A stretch of DNA of 64,000 bases from an uncultured Candidatus Actinomarina sp. Its GTDB lineage: Bacteria > Actinomycetota > Acidimicrobiia > Actinomarinales > Actinomarinaceae. Both the position numbers and the translations under genes were made by a program. Where the stretch lies: positions 128,115 through 192,114 of the forward strand of contig CACMHQ010000003.1 of the NCBI GenBank assembly GCA_902613615.1. Reading direction: 5' to 3'. The notes beneath the pieces were generated by a model. That model made no database searches. It had not been told where the DNA came from and saw only the letters and a program-made list of their open reading frames with translations. Below are positions 59,371-64,000 of this stretch, in pieces. How positions within the stretch are numbered: the stretch's first letter is position 1; each line of letters begins with the position of its first letter.

Positions 59371-60321
59371 TTAACCAGTTGGCTCAATAGCTTCTGTAGT
59401 GATTGCCTCATCTGTTTCTAGAAGTCCACAGTCTTCGAGTACTTCGTCAGTGTTTCCTCCACCAAATACAACTCTCTCAAAAACCACAACCGCGTAAATC
59501 TCATCTTCAGTAAGTTTTCCTGCAAATCCAGGCATTCCGCCGATTGATACTTTATTCTCTGCTCCATACGCGGGTCCAATTTCAGCCTGCCAACCTGCAG
59601 ATCCTAGTTCAATCCACAATGCATGATCACTACAAGTTGGAAAAGTGGTATAAAGTTCTCCACCAGTAAATGCAGGACCTACCCCTCCACCACCATTTAC
59701 TCCATGACAACCAGCACATGCTGCAGCACCAGAATAAACTTGTTGTCCAAGGGCGATATAATTTATTGAGCTTGCAGATCCAACACCTTTTCCTTCAAAC
59801 GCTGATCCATCACAGTTCACAGTTAATTGGGTTTTTCGATCAACATCTAAAATTCCGTTCTCCCCACATTCTTGTGTGGATGATGTATTGACTATCCCAA
59901 TAACAATAAAGAGGGGAATAAGTACAAAACTAAAATTTAGCCATCTTGGCAAAGATGTTTCAGCATTTACTTTTATATCCAATGTCTTATTTGCGAACGA
60001 TACTTTTTGTATAACTTTTTTAATATTTGTTTGAGAAGATACTACTGGTGAACTTTCATTTTCATCTTTTACAATTTCTGCTGACTCTTCTTTGGGTTCT
60101 TCTATATCGGCTATGTCTTCAACAGGTGCCGCCGGTTCTTCAGCGGGCGGTGCTTCTTCAGCAGGTTTTTCAACAGATGCTACACTTTCACCTCCAGCCC
60201 ATGATTGTAAAACTTCATCTACAGTTCTTTCAGAAGCTTCAGCTCTAGCTTCAGCAGATCGTTGCACCAACGACTCGGGTGCATTTAATAATTCAGCAAC
60301 TTTACTTAAGAGTTCACTCAT
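59371..60321 (-). CDS. Membrane-anchored monoheme c-type cytochrome (N-terminal cytoplasmic module, TM helix, cytochrome c domain)
   Basis: Heme motif CAGCHGVNGGGG and the distal GGMPGF methionine block. One TM helix (FSFVLIPLFIVIGIV). The first 62 aa are identical to the upstream paralogue. Confidence 0.75.
   Translation of the reverse strand: MSELLSKVAELLNAPESLVQRSAEARAEASERTVDEVLQSWAGGESVASVEKPAEEAPPAEEPAAPVEDIADIEEPKEESAEIVKDENESSPVVSSQTNIKKVIQKVSFANKTLDIKVNAETSLPRWLNFSFVLIPLFIVIGIVNTSSTQECGENGILDVDRKTQLTVNCDGSAFEGKGVGSASSINYIALGQQVYSGAAACAGCHGVNGGGGVGPAFTGGELYTTFPTCSDHALWIELGSAGWQAEIGPAYGAENKVSIGGMPGFAGKLTEDEIYAVVVFERVVFGGGNTDEVLEDCGLLETDEAITTEAIEPTG
60135..60321 (-). repeat. 187-bp direct repeat, copy A (5' module of the cytochrome c gene)
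   Basis: Base-for-base identical to 60949-61135 by manual alignment (offset 814 bp). Confidence 0.9.
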
Positions 60322-61135
60322 TTGTACTTCCTAAAGATAATAAATAAGTTATTAAATAATCTAAATCTTGATTACTCAGGAAATTTACTGATGGATGAGG
60401 TATATCTTCCTTTACAGAAGATGGATCAATTAAATATTCTTTTAGCCAATCTGCATCGTTTGTTGGTTCTCTTGTTCCAAGAGTTGATAAATCAGGAGCT
60501 AACCTCAAAAGGCCTGTATTTTGAATAAGGTTTTTATTAGCAAATCTATTTTTTAATATTTTTCCATTTTGTGAATCGGGTATGAGAATTCTTACATTCT
60601 GTGTATGACAGGACTGACAATTTAATTGGTTATAGACAATTGCTCCTTCTAATATTTCTTCACTTACCCGAACAGAATTGTTTAATGATTGTAAGACCAC
60701 CTCTTCACTTTGTTGTTTTGGTATTGAGAAAGCAAATAGGTATGTAAATATAACTACTCCAATCACACCAGCAATAAAACCTAGAGAGCTTTCTTTCTTT
60801 ATTTCAATGTTTTCTTCTTCAATTAAAACTTCTGTAGACATTTCAGAAATAGTTTCTTCAACTACAATTGATAAATCTTCTGTTGATTCCTCTTCTTCAT
60901 CTTTTTCCTCATCCGATGTTGTTACAGGTTCGTCTGTAGGTGGCACTTGTTCTTCAGCGGGCGGTGCTTCTTCAGCAGGTTTTTCAACAGATGCTACACT
61001 TTCACCTCCAGCCCATGATTGTAAAACTTCATCTACAGTTCTTTCAGAAGCTTCAGCTCTAGCTTCAGCAGATCGTTGCACCAACGACTCGGGTGCATTT
61101 AATAATTCAGCAACTTTACTTAAGAGTTCACTCAT
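60314..61135 (-). CDS. Membrane-anchored monoheme c-type cytochrome
   Basis: Heme motif CQSCH, one TM helix (GFIAGVIGVVIFTYLFAF), and the same 62-aa N-terminal module. It has an ATGA overlap with the upstream membrane-protein gene. Confidence 0.7.
   Translation of the reverse strand: MSELLSKVAELLNAPESLVQRSAEARAEASERTVDEVLQSWAGGESVASVEKPAEEAPPAEEQVPPTDEPVTTSDEEKDEEEESTEDLSIVVEETISEMSTEVLIEEENIEIKKESSLGFIAGVIGVVIFTYLFAFSIPKQQSEEVVLQSLNNSVRVSEEILEGAIVYNQLNCQSCHTQNVRILIPDSQNGKILKNRFANKNLIQNTGLLRLAPDLSTLGTREPTNDADWLKEYLIDPSSVKEDIPHPSVNFLSNQDLDYLITYLLSLGSTNE
60949..61135 (-). repeat. 187-bp direct repeat, copy B
   Basis: Identical to 60135-60321. Confidence 0.9.
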
Positions 61136-62535
61136 ACTGGAAGCTCCTCTTCAGTAAGTTCAATTGTTTCTGCTTCTGTAATTTCTCCATTTACTACAGC
61201 CTTGACGACTGAAATGAAAAACAACAGAAATGGCAGAAGTAATGTCAAAGATAAAAACATATTTAGCGTTAAAGGAGTACTGATTAGTGACCACAATAAA
61301 CCGAACCCTTCACCATAGATTGTTGGGTTTCCTGCATTGGCACCAGCATTCCATGAGTAACCAGAAATAATTCCGATTAAAGCATTAGAAAATAAGGTTA
61401 AAGACACCACAAGTTTTAATAGAAAACTAGTTAAAGATTCAAGCCTTGAAAATTTGACTTCTCTTCCAAAGATTTTTGGAATCAGATAATAAACAAATGA
61501 GATGGTAATTAATATTGCACTGAAAACATAACCATATCTAATTGCTATCTCAAAATTTGTAAGACTCAATATCGGAATGATATTTGAGAGCGAGGAAACG
61601 ATTTGAAAGATATTTGTTATTACAAATATTCCAAACGAGAAACTTATAAGACTATAAACTACTTTATTTTCGTCAATTCTCGTTGAAACCGTTCTGAAGA
61701 AATTTACAGCTATAGCAAGCAGTGGGAGAGACAAACTTATAGACAAGTAAAGAGATATATTTTCTATCCAATTTGGCAATACAGAACCAAAGTAGAATTT
61801 AAAATTTGACCAAGGAATAAGAAACAAGAATCCCCAAAATCCAATAGACCCCAATGTTTTACTGTACAACGTAGCATTTATACCTTTTGTAATCATGAAA
61901 TGAAGTAATGATAGAAATACGAACGAATATCCGACATATATATGTGTTGAAACATACATTGAATTAATGAAAAAATTATCGCTAAATACGACAAAATCAG
62001 CTCTATAAATTAGAAGTGATATCAAATAAAAAATACTTGCACCAAAAAGATACTGACTACTAACAAACAGAGAAGCTTCTTTTTTGGCCAATATATTTAA
62101 AATAATGAGTCCAACAAAGGCGAAAAATATTAAGATTTTAAAAATTAATGTATAACTAGTATTCCCAAAGAACAAAAAACTATTAGGAAATAATACTCCT
62201 AATAATAGATCGAGTGACTCCAATCCAATAACTCCCAATGAAGTTAGAAAAAAAATTGGGAATATTATTAATTTTCTTCCAAGTGTTTTTGGTAATAAGT
62301 AAACAGTCAAAAACACAATTAAAAATGAAAGCATCAAATTGTAAGTTATATGGTTATTTAGTTTTTCTAAATATCCACTATTGAGAAAACTATTTTGAGG
62401 GAGTATGGCTGCAAAAATGAAATAAGCTTCTTTTGTCAATGCAATAGTTCCTAAAAGAAGCAAAAAAAGTGGAGTTAAAACAATAAAAAATTTTGAAAAC
62501 GCTTGTTCATTTTTTGGAAAAATTTTTATTCTCAT
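61132..62535 (-). CDS. Polytopic membrane protein (467 aa), first gene of the cytochrome c operon, function unknown
   Basis: About 12 hydrophobic helices. It is translationally coupled (ATGA) to the first cytochrome c gene. With only 3 His residues, it is not a heme-copper oxidase subunit I. Confidence 0.5.
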   Translation of the reverse strand: MRIKIFPKNEQAFSKFFIVLTPLFLLLLGTIALTKEAYFIFAAILPQNSFLNSGYLEKLNNHITYNLMLSFLIVFLTVYLLPKTLGRKLIIFPIFFLTSLGVIGLESLDLLLGVLFPNSFLFFGNTSYTLIFKILIFFAFVGLIILNILAKKEASLFVSSQYLFGASIFYLISLLIYRADFVVFSDNFFINSMYVSTHIYVGYSFVFLSLLHFMITKGINATLYSKTLGSIGFWGFLFLIPWSNFKFYFGSVLPNWIENISLYLSISLSLPLLAIAVNFFRTVSTRIDENKVVYSLISFSFGIFVITNIFQIVSSLSNIIPILSLTNFEIAIRYGYVFSAILITISFVYYLIPKIFGREVKFSRLESLTSFLLKLVVSLTLFSNALIGIISGYSWNAGANAGNPTIYGEGFGLLWSLISTPLTLNMFLSLTLLLPFLLFFISVVKAVVNGEITEAETIELTEEELPV

Positions 62536-62704: not shown

Positions 62705-63298
62705 TTGTTAAATTTTATATTTATTAACCGATACAAAATCGGAGTTGCTTTAATTTTTGCTGGAGTAGGTGGCATAACAATTGGAGTAATTATCGCACAT
62801 TTCGCTGGATTTCCAGAAGGCGAAGTAATCGATTATTTTAATTGGATGCCTAGGGGATGGCTAATGCAAACCATCGGGCAACTCATTGCTTTTGGTGCAG
62901 GTCAATTTCTATTGATCGGAATGGCAATGCTTGCATGGCAAGATTCTGAATTAACTTGGGCTAGAGCAACATATCTTGCATTTCTCAGTTGGATACAATT
63001 TGCACTTATATTTGGTGTATTGCCTTCTGAGTGGTTAAACCTTTCTCAAGGACCTCTTGAATGGACAAATCAAAGAGAGTTTATTAACTTTCCTCCAATT
63101 TTATTTTTAGGTAACGAAATAGGAATGAGCCTCGGAGCTCTGAAAGACATTATTCAACTTGGTATATCAGGTGGAGCATTAGTGACAGCTTTTGTAGTAG
63201 GGTATCTAATTCAAGATATCAACGAAGCAAAAGAAAGAGGAAAAACTAGAGTTTCTGATTATGGAAAACAAGTCGTGAAGGTAGGTGCTGATGGCTAA
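62705..63298 (+). CDS. Membrane protein (197 aa), function unknown, upstream of the ferredoxin and cytochrome b genes
   Basis: TTG start in the ORF track. Four or five hydrophobic helices and no Cys, so it is not a Rieske protein. It overlaps the next gene. Confidence 0.4.
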   Translation: MLNFIFINRYKIGVALIFAGVGGITIGVIIAHFAGFPEGEVIDYFNWMPRGWLMQTIGQLIAFGAGQFLLIGMAMLAWQDSELTWARATYLAFLSWIQFALIFGVLPSEWLNLSQGPLEWTNQREFINFPPILFLGNEIGMSLGALKDIIQLGISGGALVTAFVVGYLIQDINEAKERGKTRVSDYGKQVVKVGADG

Positions 63299-63740
63299 AT
63301 CAGAAGTACTTATTGAAATGCCTGAATTTGAAAAAAAATACAATTTAGCCATGGTAGACGCGGAAAAGGTTTCTTCAAGGGTAAGGCCAAAACAGTTTTT
63401 ACATATTGATGAGGCAGAGTGCATTTTATGTGAAGGGTGTGTAGATATCTGTCCATGGAAGTGCATACATTACTTATCAACAGACGCTATAGAAGACTCT
63501 ATAAATGTAGAAGCTCCTAACATGGAAGATAATGAAACGGGATTCTTTGTTGTAGATGAAGAAGCTTGTACAAGATGTGCATTATGTGTTGATAGGTGCC
63601 CAACAGGGGTTATATCGCTTGGTAAGTTTGCTGGATCTTTAGCAGATGCTGCAATAAAGAATGGTGTTTATGAATCTCCTTGGGATGAAGACTCTGGAGA
63701 GAGAAGTGACCGTCATGGCTATATATATGGAAGACTTTAA
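63291..63740 (+). CDS. 2x[4Fe-4S] dicluster ferredoxin-domain protein
   Basis: Two cluster motifs, CILCEGCVDICP and CTRCALCVDRCP. I prefer the ATG at 63291 (MAKSEV...) to the GTG at 63285. The stop overlaps the cytochrome b start (TAATG). Confidence 0.75.
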   Translation: MAKSEVLIEMPEFEKKYNLAMVDAEKVSSRVRPKQFLHIDEAECILCEGCVDICPWKCIHYLSTDAIEDSINVEAPNMEDNETGFFVVDEEACTRCALCVDRCPTGVISLGKFAGSLADAAIKNGVYESPWDEDSGERSDRHGYIYGRL

Positions 63741-64000
63741 TGAAAAACGAAAAAATTAGATTTAAAGATAGATTAAAAGACATAAGTTCTGGTCTTGGTG
63801 ATTCGCTTAAAGAAAGCACGCTTTGGGGAAGTATTTTTAGACCTGGTTCTCCATTTAGGAAAGGCTATTCCGATAGCCCAAGAAACAGATCTTATGTTGT
63901 TATGAACAATGTTTTATATCACCTTCACCCAGTAAAAGTAAAAAGACATGGCGTGAGGTTATCATACACCCTTTGTCTTGGAGGATTAAGTTTCTTTACT
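63740..64000 (+). CDS. Cytochrome b (bc-complex type), N-terminal fragment truncated by the window end
   Basis: This ORF is not in the ORF track because it has no stop inside the window. My translation is MKNEKIRFKDRL...VLYHLHPVKVKRHGVRLSYTLCLGGLSFFT. The HLHP.kV......l.yT.clGG.sf block is the typical lead-in to helix A of cytochrome b. Confidence 0.5.
   Translation, partial: MKNEKIRFKDRLKDISSGLGDSLKESTLWGSIFRPGSPFRKGYSDSPRNRSYVVMNNVLYHLHPVKVKRHGVRLSYTLCLGGLSFFT

Follow-up and report, generated by a model that had tools for sequence, protein, structure and literature searches.

A shared 5′ module in two neighbouring cytochrome c genes of Candidatus Actinomarina: concerted evolution of a putative docking domain

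A stretch of 64,000 nucleotides (nt) from an uncultured Candidatus Actinomarina sp. (contig CACMHQ010000003.1, positions 128,115 to 192,114; hereafter the window) carries two adjacent genes for single-pass, monohaem cytochromes c, one CcoO-like and one CcoP-like, that begin with the same 187 nt. Actinomarina is among the most abundant surface-ocean actinobacteria and has one of the smallest free-living genomes; with so small a genome, what the organism keeps is likely to matter to it. The explanation that we favour, at a probability of roughly 0.72, is that gene conversion keeps the shared 5′ module homogeneous, that the two cytochromes are homologues of CcoO and CcoP, that the module has a docking role and that both proteins are placed on a redox-inactive, CcoN-like scaffold. 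Positions below are those of the window unless preceded by an L number, which designates a related locus; P numbers designate related proteins.

Two otherwise unrelated cytochrome c genes begin with the same module

Direct comparison within the window showed that positions 60135-60321 and 60949-61135 are the same, base for base, over 187 nt. Both copies are on the minus strand and each opens a cytochrome c gene, of which it covers the start codon and 62 codons in all from the 5′-end. Copy 1 (60949-61135) forms the 5′-end of the CcoO-like gene (60314-61135, minus strand), which codes for 273 residues with the haem-binding motif CQSCH at 60605-60619; copy 2 (60135-60321), defined by exact comparison and by unitigs, forms the 5′-end of the CcoP-like gene (59371-60321, minus strand), which codes for 316 residues with the motif CAGCH at 59704-59718. 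The copies are direct repeats, 814 bp apart, with sharp edges: identity begins at the A of the ATG, ends in codon 63 and extends no further on either side. A repeat search returned the same pair as 198 nt at 98%. The preliminary description of this DNA had reported a 187-bp 5′ module, 100% identical between the two genes and covering the start codon and 62 codons, followed by proteins unrelated in sequence, each with an acidic linker, one hydrophobic, presumably transmembrane (TM), helix and one CxxCH motif; all of this was borne out, and BLASTP found no similarity between the two cytochromes beyond the module.

Within the first 8 nt of the module, ATGAGTGA (61128-61135 and 60314-60321), each of the two other reading frames has a TGA. 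The first of these is the stop of the CcoN-like gene that precedes the pair and the second that of the CcoO-like gene, so that the module ends any preceding open reading frame (ORF) and restarts translation.

The repeat is genuine. Identical repeats longer than the k-mer size confuse assemblers, and an assembler could in principle have duplicated the module of a genome that holds only one, or misjoined contigs at it; many short-read contigs do break at the module, and several related contigs end there (L010, L011, L024, L037, L040, L043, L044, L048, L051 and L052). Logan unitigs from four marine metagenome runs, each independent of the others, were placed on this stretch of the window. In all four the 187 nt made up a separate unitig with a depth about double that of the flanks (18.5 against 10-11, 33 against 18, 159 against 87-93 and 191 against 83), and unique unitigs entered and left it on both sides, as a genome with two copies should produce. 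The double-depth unitig recurred in RNA runs. Moreover, both copies are present in about 30 independent single-cell and long-read assemblies, and both are spanned by the long contigs of relatives, from long-read metagenome-assembled genomes (MAGs) or of about 1 Mb (L009, L016, L025, L027 and L041), a check that the preliminary description had suggested. The error actually met runs the opposite way, the CcoO-like gene being lost by collapse (L046, L047 and L049), and we regard an assembly artefact as so improbable as to be negligible.

In the three collapsed assemblies the CcoN-like gene is joined straight to the module and the cytochrome c body; the CcoO-like piece missing from L049 was located on L038, a 1-kb contig that belongs to the same bin. 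In the assembly of L013 the CcoO-like gene is present twice. The repeat thus makes assemblers drop or duplicate the CcoO-like gene, which can distort comparisons of gene content in the group.

The preliminary description had also noted that the module is richer in guanine and cytosine (GC) than its surroundings. This is correct (44%, against 29% for the window), and the cause lies in amino acid composition: the excess is confined to codon positions 1 and 2 (0.53-0.58 against 0.38-0.42), while third-position GC, at about 0.19, equals that of the rest of both genes. Since the third position is unchanged, the higher GC content reflects a composition rich in Ala, Glu, Arg and Gly. A foreign origin of the module and GC-biased conversion were both considered and rejected on the same ground, namely the equal third-position GC in the remainder of the genes.

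The two modules evolve in concert

Both genes were taken from 34 genomes, and the first 135 nt of the CcoO-like gene (O) and of the CcoP-like gene (P) were compared. The O and P copies differed by at most 1% in 24 of the 34 genomes, whereas the median divergence of the same 135 nt between genomes was 26%; in 23 of the 34, the paralogue in the same genome was closer than any orthologue. Counted from the start codon, the exact prefix shared by O and P ranged from 155 to 247 nt across genomes. Unconverted pairs, in which the copies differ by 11-24%, were found in nine or ten genomes, and here 11-19 synonymous stood against 1-6 non-synonymous codons out of 44. As the differences are almost all synonymous, the DNA is free to drift, strong purifying selection acts on the protein, and sameness of the DNA needs conversion.

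Individual events can be discerned between close relatives. The gene bodies of L023 and L002 differ at 1 of 300 and 3 of 300 positions; the P module of L023, however, shows no difference from its own O module and 14 differences in 132 positions from the P module of L002, which makes this an O-to-P conversion. The comparison of L020 with L028 shows a conversion from P to O, and L027 against L028 provides a further case. Closely related cells have thus captured single events in both directions, which makes the locus an example of domain-limited gene conversion in a streamlined genome.

The preliminary description had attributed the perfect identity either to ongoing conversion or to a very recent duplication, and had asked whether relatives share the arrangement and whether their modules co-evolve. 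The two-gene arrangement is found across Actinomarina and in a distant relative of 68% GC (L053), in which the 5′-ends of the same two genes are identical at 196 of 200 nt; the modules co-evolve in the 24 of 34 genomes mentioned above. The presence of the same arrangement in L053 indicates that it is old and that homogenisation is recurrent. Of the two explanations offered, conversion stood, the copies being identical within a genome and the orthologues about 26% apart. A 5′ module duplicated very recently in this strain, without ongoing conversion, would account for 100% identity over 187 nt; but two modules are present in all Actinomarina loci that have both genes, in L045 and in the 68% GC relative, the modules are identical within most genomes and about 26% apart between them, and close pairs of genomes differ in whether their copies are homogenised. 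We give a recent duplication next to no weight. Taken together, these comparisons identify the identity of O and P as the outcome of concerted evolution.

Selection on the nucleotide sequence itself, for example on a shared mRNA structure or translation signal, might also keep the copies the same; both hold a start codon and early coding region, and both upstream genes terminate inside the first 8 nt, ATGAGTGA. Synonymous sites are nevertheless free, as seen in the nine or ten genomes whose copies differ by 11-24%, nearly always synonymously, and the DNA of the module is about 26% divergent between genomes while its protein is nearly invariant. On the pattern of substitutions, selection of this kind is in our view very improbable.

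Intrachromosomal gene conversion thus recurs at this locus and homogenises both 5′ modules, in tracts that begin at the start codon, extend over 155-247 nt and run in either direction. The tracts stop where homology stops, at the preceding gene on the upstream side and at the variable linker on the downstream side, and purifying selection on the module renders every conversion harmless. When the copies have drifted apart by more than about 10-20% at synonymous sites, conversion lapses and paralogue-specific changes come to be fixed. One clade, formed by L019, L022, L026 and L029, has fixed paralogue-specific residues in common, and conversion has evidently lapsed there.

The tufA and tufB genes of Salmonella are an example of interlocus gene conversion. 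Other prokaryotic paralogues for which such conversion is known include the duplicated mtrA of methanogens (PMC4632066) and RF1/RF2 (PMC4530459). The Actinomarina locus resembles these three systems in that paralogous segments are closer within a genome than orthologues are between genomes, in the mosaic structure with tracts ending where homology ends, and in the repetition of independent events. It differs from them in that only a 5′ module of about 160-250 nt, coding for a domain, is converted, in that the two genes, otherwise unrelated and at a distance of 814 bp, belong to a streamlined genome of about 1 Mb, and in that the converted unit is a portable domain found also on other subunits. 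The evolutionary part of our findings, that is, the conversion of paralogous segments at different loci of a prokaryote, is thus known in kind; it is solid but ordinary.

The module is an undescribed domain found on several respiratory subunits

The core of the module comprises 46 residues, encoded at 60998-61135 in the CcoO-like gene and, identically, at 60184-60321 in the CcoP-like gene (both minus strand), with predicted helices at residues 3-11, 16-30 and 34-41. The preliminary description had seen a shared cytoplasmic helical module, perhaps for docking or assembly, and had proposed a structure prediction. Using an alignment of 37 diverse copies, AlphaFold2 folded the module alone into three helices with a predicted local distance difference test (pLDDT) score of 91.7; a three-helix fold common to subunits of one cluster would fit such a role. 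The full-length model of the CcoO-like protein was poor overall (pLDDT 48) and was used solely for the module, the linker and the TM helix: the module scores 76-81, and some 70 disordered residues separate it from the membrane helix.

Both cytochromes have the same layout, with the module at the N-terminus, then a linker rich in acidic residues, a single hydrophobic helix and a haem domain with one CxxCH motif. The linker of the CcoO-like protein (60782-60997, minus strand) has 26 Asp and Glu against 4 Lys and Arg residues and is predicted to be disordered, with pLDDT below 50 for residues 45-113 of the full-length model; its first 49 nt lie inside the conversion tract. The linker of the CcoP-like protein (59941-60183, minus strand) has 18 Asp and Glu and 9 Lys and Arg residues. 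Single TM helices were located by a hydropathy scan at 60722-60781 in the CcoO-like gene (GFIAGVIGVVIFTYLFAFSI), where AlphaFold2 places a helix at residues 117-152, and at 59881-59940 in the CcoP-like gene (LNFSFVLIPLFIVIGIVNTS), both on the minus strand.

Positions P15, R21, S22, A23, A25, A27, G31, L38 and W41 of the module are nearly invariant, and the module sequence as a whole hardly varies between lineages that have no more than 55-60% identity in their haem domains. No family in Pfam or NCBIfam matched it. Sequence and profile searches of the PDB gave matches at chance level alone (uL10, a short-chain dehydrogenase/reductase and TyrRS; E ≥ 0.04), and a Foldseek search of the PDB with the module model returned nothing below E = 4, the best matches being designed helical repeats. 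A helix-turn-helix (HTH) domain was considered and rejected: single modules have no Pfam hit, the matches are summed, sub-threshold and limited to multi-copy proteins, and the module is net acidic.

A profile of the module, run against 1.8 billion representative proteins, retrieved 426 clusters with one to seven copies per protein, multiple copies being separated by linkers rich in Ala, Pro and Glu. The carriers are the CcoP-like cytochrome c (up to five copies), the CcoO-like protein, the C-terminal subunit of cytochrome b (up to five copies) and a small membrane subunit. The last is represented by P0241, from a high-GC relative, which has seven modules and a C-terminal domain that matches a 122-residue Actinomarina membrane protein (E 5e-28; see below). 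A further protein search with the module profile gave short fragments only, with no new taxonomic reach, and looking up a cluster yielded no more than the labels 'Actinomycetota bacterium' and 'mono/diheme cytochrome c family protein'.

A third, diverged module begins the C-terminal subunit of cytochrome b in every Actinomarina locus; it is 33-42% identical to the other two and lacks helix 1. The gene (L001:729-1610, minus strand, MVDIPEHLLLKTAEARAKALGISVEQALAEM...; also P0144 and P0210) would lie just beyond the end of the window. This module is followed by a variable number of EVKETPAPAA decapeptide repeats and then by the membrane part of the protein, and it takes no part in conversion. The module, which has no described counterpart, is specific to this respiratory cluster and occurs on at least four different membrane subunits across the Acidimicrobiia; it defines a new family of small domains that goes with the respiratory membrane proteins of the group.

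The cluster has the order of a cbb3 oxidase operon and a CcoN homologue without metal ligands

The two cytochrome genes follow a gene for a homologue of CcoN, subunit I of haem-copper oxidases (467 residues; 61132-62535, minus strand), the stop codon of which overlaps the start of the CcoO-like gene. The CcoN homologue was recognised by Pfam COX1 (E 1.5e-10), the TIGR ccoN model (E 1.8e-10) and PDB entry 3mk7_A (E 1.6e-10). The 273-residue protein matches Pfam FixO with E 8e-7 and 29.2 bits, just under the cut-off of 29.6; it also matches the NCBIfam ccoO models and, with E 0.004-0.07, CcoO chains in the PDB, and its relative P0379 reaches 59.9 bits against FixO. Homologues of this protein were found in Candidatus Actinomarina and in other marine Acidimicrobiia. 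The 316-residue protein is a class I cytochrome c, matched by Pfam Cytochrom_C (E 1.6e-7) and Cytochrome_CBB3 (E 1.9e-6), and its relative P0278 shows a weak match to FixP_N. In high-GC relatives (61-67% GC; L057:7009-8994 and L058:6737-8998), CcoN and CcoO are fused into a protein of 661-753 residues that lacks the module, and the cytochrome c gene of both loci has three modules.

Haem-copper oxidases require six conserved His residues, which hold haem b, haem b3 and CuB. The CcoN homologue has three His in 467 residues. In an alignment with Pseudomonas stutzeri CcoN (3mk7_A), the His-His pair of CuB and the two His of helix 10 are replaced; none of the His residues is invariant among 38 Actinomarina orthologues, and the high-GC relatives show the same loss of ligands. 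Having lost the canonical His residues, the protein cannot bind haem b, haem b3 or CuB in the usual way, and the cluster is not a working cbb3 oxidase. The two cytochromes probably sit on a redox-inactive, CcoN-like scaffold in a cluster that forms no oxidase.

The likeness to the cbb3 oxidase CcoNOP, a C-family haem-copper oxidase (PDB 3mk7 and 5djq), resides in the gene order N-O-P, in sequence homology to CcoN, CcoO and the CcoP-type haem domain, and in the single-pass topology of CcoO and CcoP with an outward-facing haem c domain. The differences are threefold: the CcoN homologue has lost the His-His pair of CuB as well as the haem ligands in helix 10 and has no conserved His; the CcoP-like protein has one haem (a single CAGCH and one Cytochrome_CBB3 domain) instead of two; and both cytochromes carry a long cytoplasmic module and linker, which are absent from known cbb3 oxidases. 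Despite the loss of ligands, the CcoN homologue is kept across the Acidimicrobiia and is covered by metatranscriptome contigs. Unitigs of seawater metatranscriptomes, at 95-99% identity, span the whole cluster, a coverage that fits its expression, contig depth being a poor measure and carry-over of DNA being possible. The conservation and transcription of a subunit I without ligands raise the question of what the cluster does in the respiratory chain.

A divergent operon encodes the Rieske/cytochrome b complex

An operon for a Rieske/cytochrome b complex lies back to back with the ccoN-ccoO-ccoP-like operon. Its first gene (62705-63298, plus strand) codes for a 197-residue membrane protein that belongs to no known family in Pfam and whose position is kept in relatives. 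The second (63285-63740, plus strand) codes for a 151-residue ferredoxin subunit, matched by Pfam Fer4 families, with two [4Fe-4S] motifs; this gene is present in every related cluster examined. The third, recognised by translation and by synteny with L001, L002 and L056, is the start of a gene for the N-terminal, b6-type part of cytochrome b (63740-64000, plus strand), which runs off the end of the window. In L001, L002 and L056 the order is the 197-residue membrane protein, the ferredoxin with two [4Fe-4S] motifs, a cytochrome b split into N- and C-terminal parts, the Rieske protein, a dihaem cytochrome c and the 122-residue membrane protein referred to above. The dihaem cytochrome c of L056 (474 residues, CGNCH and CARCH; L056:3405-4829, minus strand) is encoded directly after the Rieske protein and is followed by the gene for the 122-residue protein (L056:3044-3412, minus strand). 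L003 and L004, relatives of the window at 96-97%, likewise show the first haem motif of this gene, which in them is cut by the edge of the locus. The dihaem gene is known from these relatives; in the genome from which the window comes it would be situated past position 64000.

The bc1 (bcc) complexes of actinobacteria normally have a single dihaem QcrC, and the preliminary description had taken the two monohaem proteins for the halves of a split QcrC that serves the bc complex. In keeping with this idea, the genes adjoin the Rieske/cytochrome b operon; moreover, the adjacent CcoN homologue lacks redox ligands, so that the cytochromes feed no oxidase active site there, but could yet pass on electrons that come from the bc complex. 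The idea did not survive, because the proteins are homologous to CcoO (FixO) and to monohaem CcoP-type domains and are encoded behind a CcoN homologue in the order ccoN-ccoO-ccoP, because CcoN and CcoO are fused in the high-GC relatives, and because relatives have a separate dihaem cytochrome c gene after that for the Rieske protein. With a dihaem cytochrome of its own in the bc-type complex, a split QcrC is unsupported, and we consider it highly improbable.

Proteobacterial bc1-cbb3 supercomplexes offer a system for comparison (PMC7876108; PMC10556555). What the present locus has in common with these and with the actinobacterial bcc complex is that genes for a Rieske/cytochrome b complex adjoin a cbb3-like set and that, in relatives, a dihaem cytochrome c is encoded together with the Rieske and cytochrome b proteins. 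The locus differs in that cytochrome b is split, in the manner of b6 and subunit IV, and in that the operon also codes for two small membrane proteins and for a ferredoxin with two [4Fe-4S] motifs. A further difference is that the cbb3-like partner is without a catalytic centre; any supercomplex here is hypothetical.

A probable docking role for the module

The c-type haem domains mature outside the membrane and face outward, and proteins of the subunit IV type have a cytoplasmic N-terminus. Lying across a single membrane helix from an outward haem domain, the module is predicted by topology to be cytoplasmic. The carrier subunit and the number of modules vary by lineage, and yet the cluster always displays several nearly invariant copies. 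Variation in number and carrier, with several copies always present, makes multivalent docking or tethering the most likely role. The module would be a multivalent cytoplasmic domain that binds one common partner, or other modules, and this docking would assemble or organise the complex.

The chains of the E2 component of 2-oxoacid dehydrogenases carry small helical binding domains on flexible linkers rich in Ala, Pro and Glu. Their peripheral-subunit-binding domain is, by analogy only, similar to the module in being helical, about 35-45 residues long, variable in copy number and spaced by flexible, low-complexity linkers; it differs in that no sequence or fold match links the two and in that the modules described here are attached to membrane respiratory subunits.

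The main functional rival to docking is that the module has no docking site in the mature complex and aids topology or biogenesis, either as a fast-folding N-terminal domain that holds the acidic tail in the cytoplasm or as a target recognised by an insertion or assembly factor. Every carrier has the module N-terminal to a membrane helix that inserts with the N-terminus inside, and the linkers are strongly acidic, against the positive-inside rule; moreover, CcoO lacks the module when fused behind CcoN (L057 and L058) and has it as a separate gene (the window, L045 and L053). For such a purpose, however, one folded domain would suffice, and up to seven copies are found on one subunit in relatives; in addition, near invariance over lineages with haem domains only 55-60% identical points to a specific binding surface. 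We therefore find a role confined to topology or biogenesis doubtful and prefer docking.

Several points weigh against our overall explanation. Where short-read assemblies show identity, the two copies might still differ in rare members of a population. The cytoplasmic location of the module is predicted from topology rules, and the putative link between the module and a partner is drawn from architecture and distribution. A single complex of the Rieske/cytochrome b proteins with the CcoN-like, the CcoO-like and the cytochrome c protein is deduced solely from the conservation of gene neighbourhood. Finally, the weak, sub-threshold HTH matches leave room for a different activity, although the module is net acidic.

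More speculatively, the module might be the signature of an undescribed respiratory supercomplex of the Acidimicrobiia, in which the Rieske/cytochrome b complex is joined to a dead cbb3-type scaffold with two c-type cytochromes. Several modules on flexible acidic arms could recruit a common soluble partner, such as the ferredoxin with two [4Fe-4S] motifs, or could link complexes to one another, and conversion would keep the arms interchangeable. We put this forward as a tentative suggestion, which is unlikely to hold.

Three points are new: the converted unit is a portable, undescribed domain common to otherwise unrelated neighbouring genes; respiratory subunits specific to one cluster of the Acidimicrobiia are marked out by this domain as a set; and the cbb3-like partner is without a catalytic centre. 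We found no paper on these points in a search of the literature on Actinomarina and Acidimicrobiia cytochromes, on CcoN homologues without ligands and on the module. The surprising parts, to our mind, are the domain family and the ligand-less CcoN, both of putative function.

Other features of the window and of related loci

In one Actinomarina clade, a 78-residue, cysteine-rich ORF without the module lies between the CcoO-like and the cytochrome c genes (L056:10782-11018). The same spacer of about 220 nt is present in L012, L015, L016, L021, L022, L025, L027 and L028, and in the clade with this insert the cytochrome c gene starts with GTG. The cytochrome c ORF of L021 stops after 77 residues, which may represent a frameshift in a long-read assembly. 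L021 (JBJKYB010000001.1) and L042 (CBFIBF010000028.1) are MAG contigs labelled as Gammaproteobacteria with an Actinomarina-type locus, and are probably mis-binned.

Positions 1-36000 of the window have a GC content of 24-26%, against 32-37% for 36000-64000. These first 36 kb contain a Wzy_C (O-antigen ligase-like) gene and many large ORFs without a Pfam match, and may be a variable island for glycosylation of the cell envelope.

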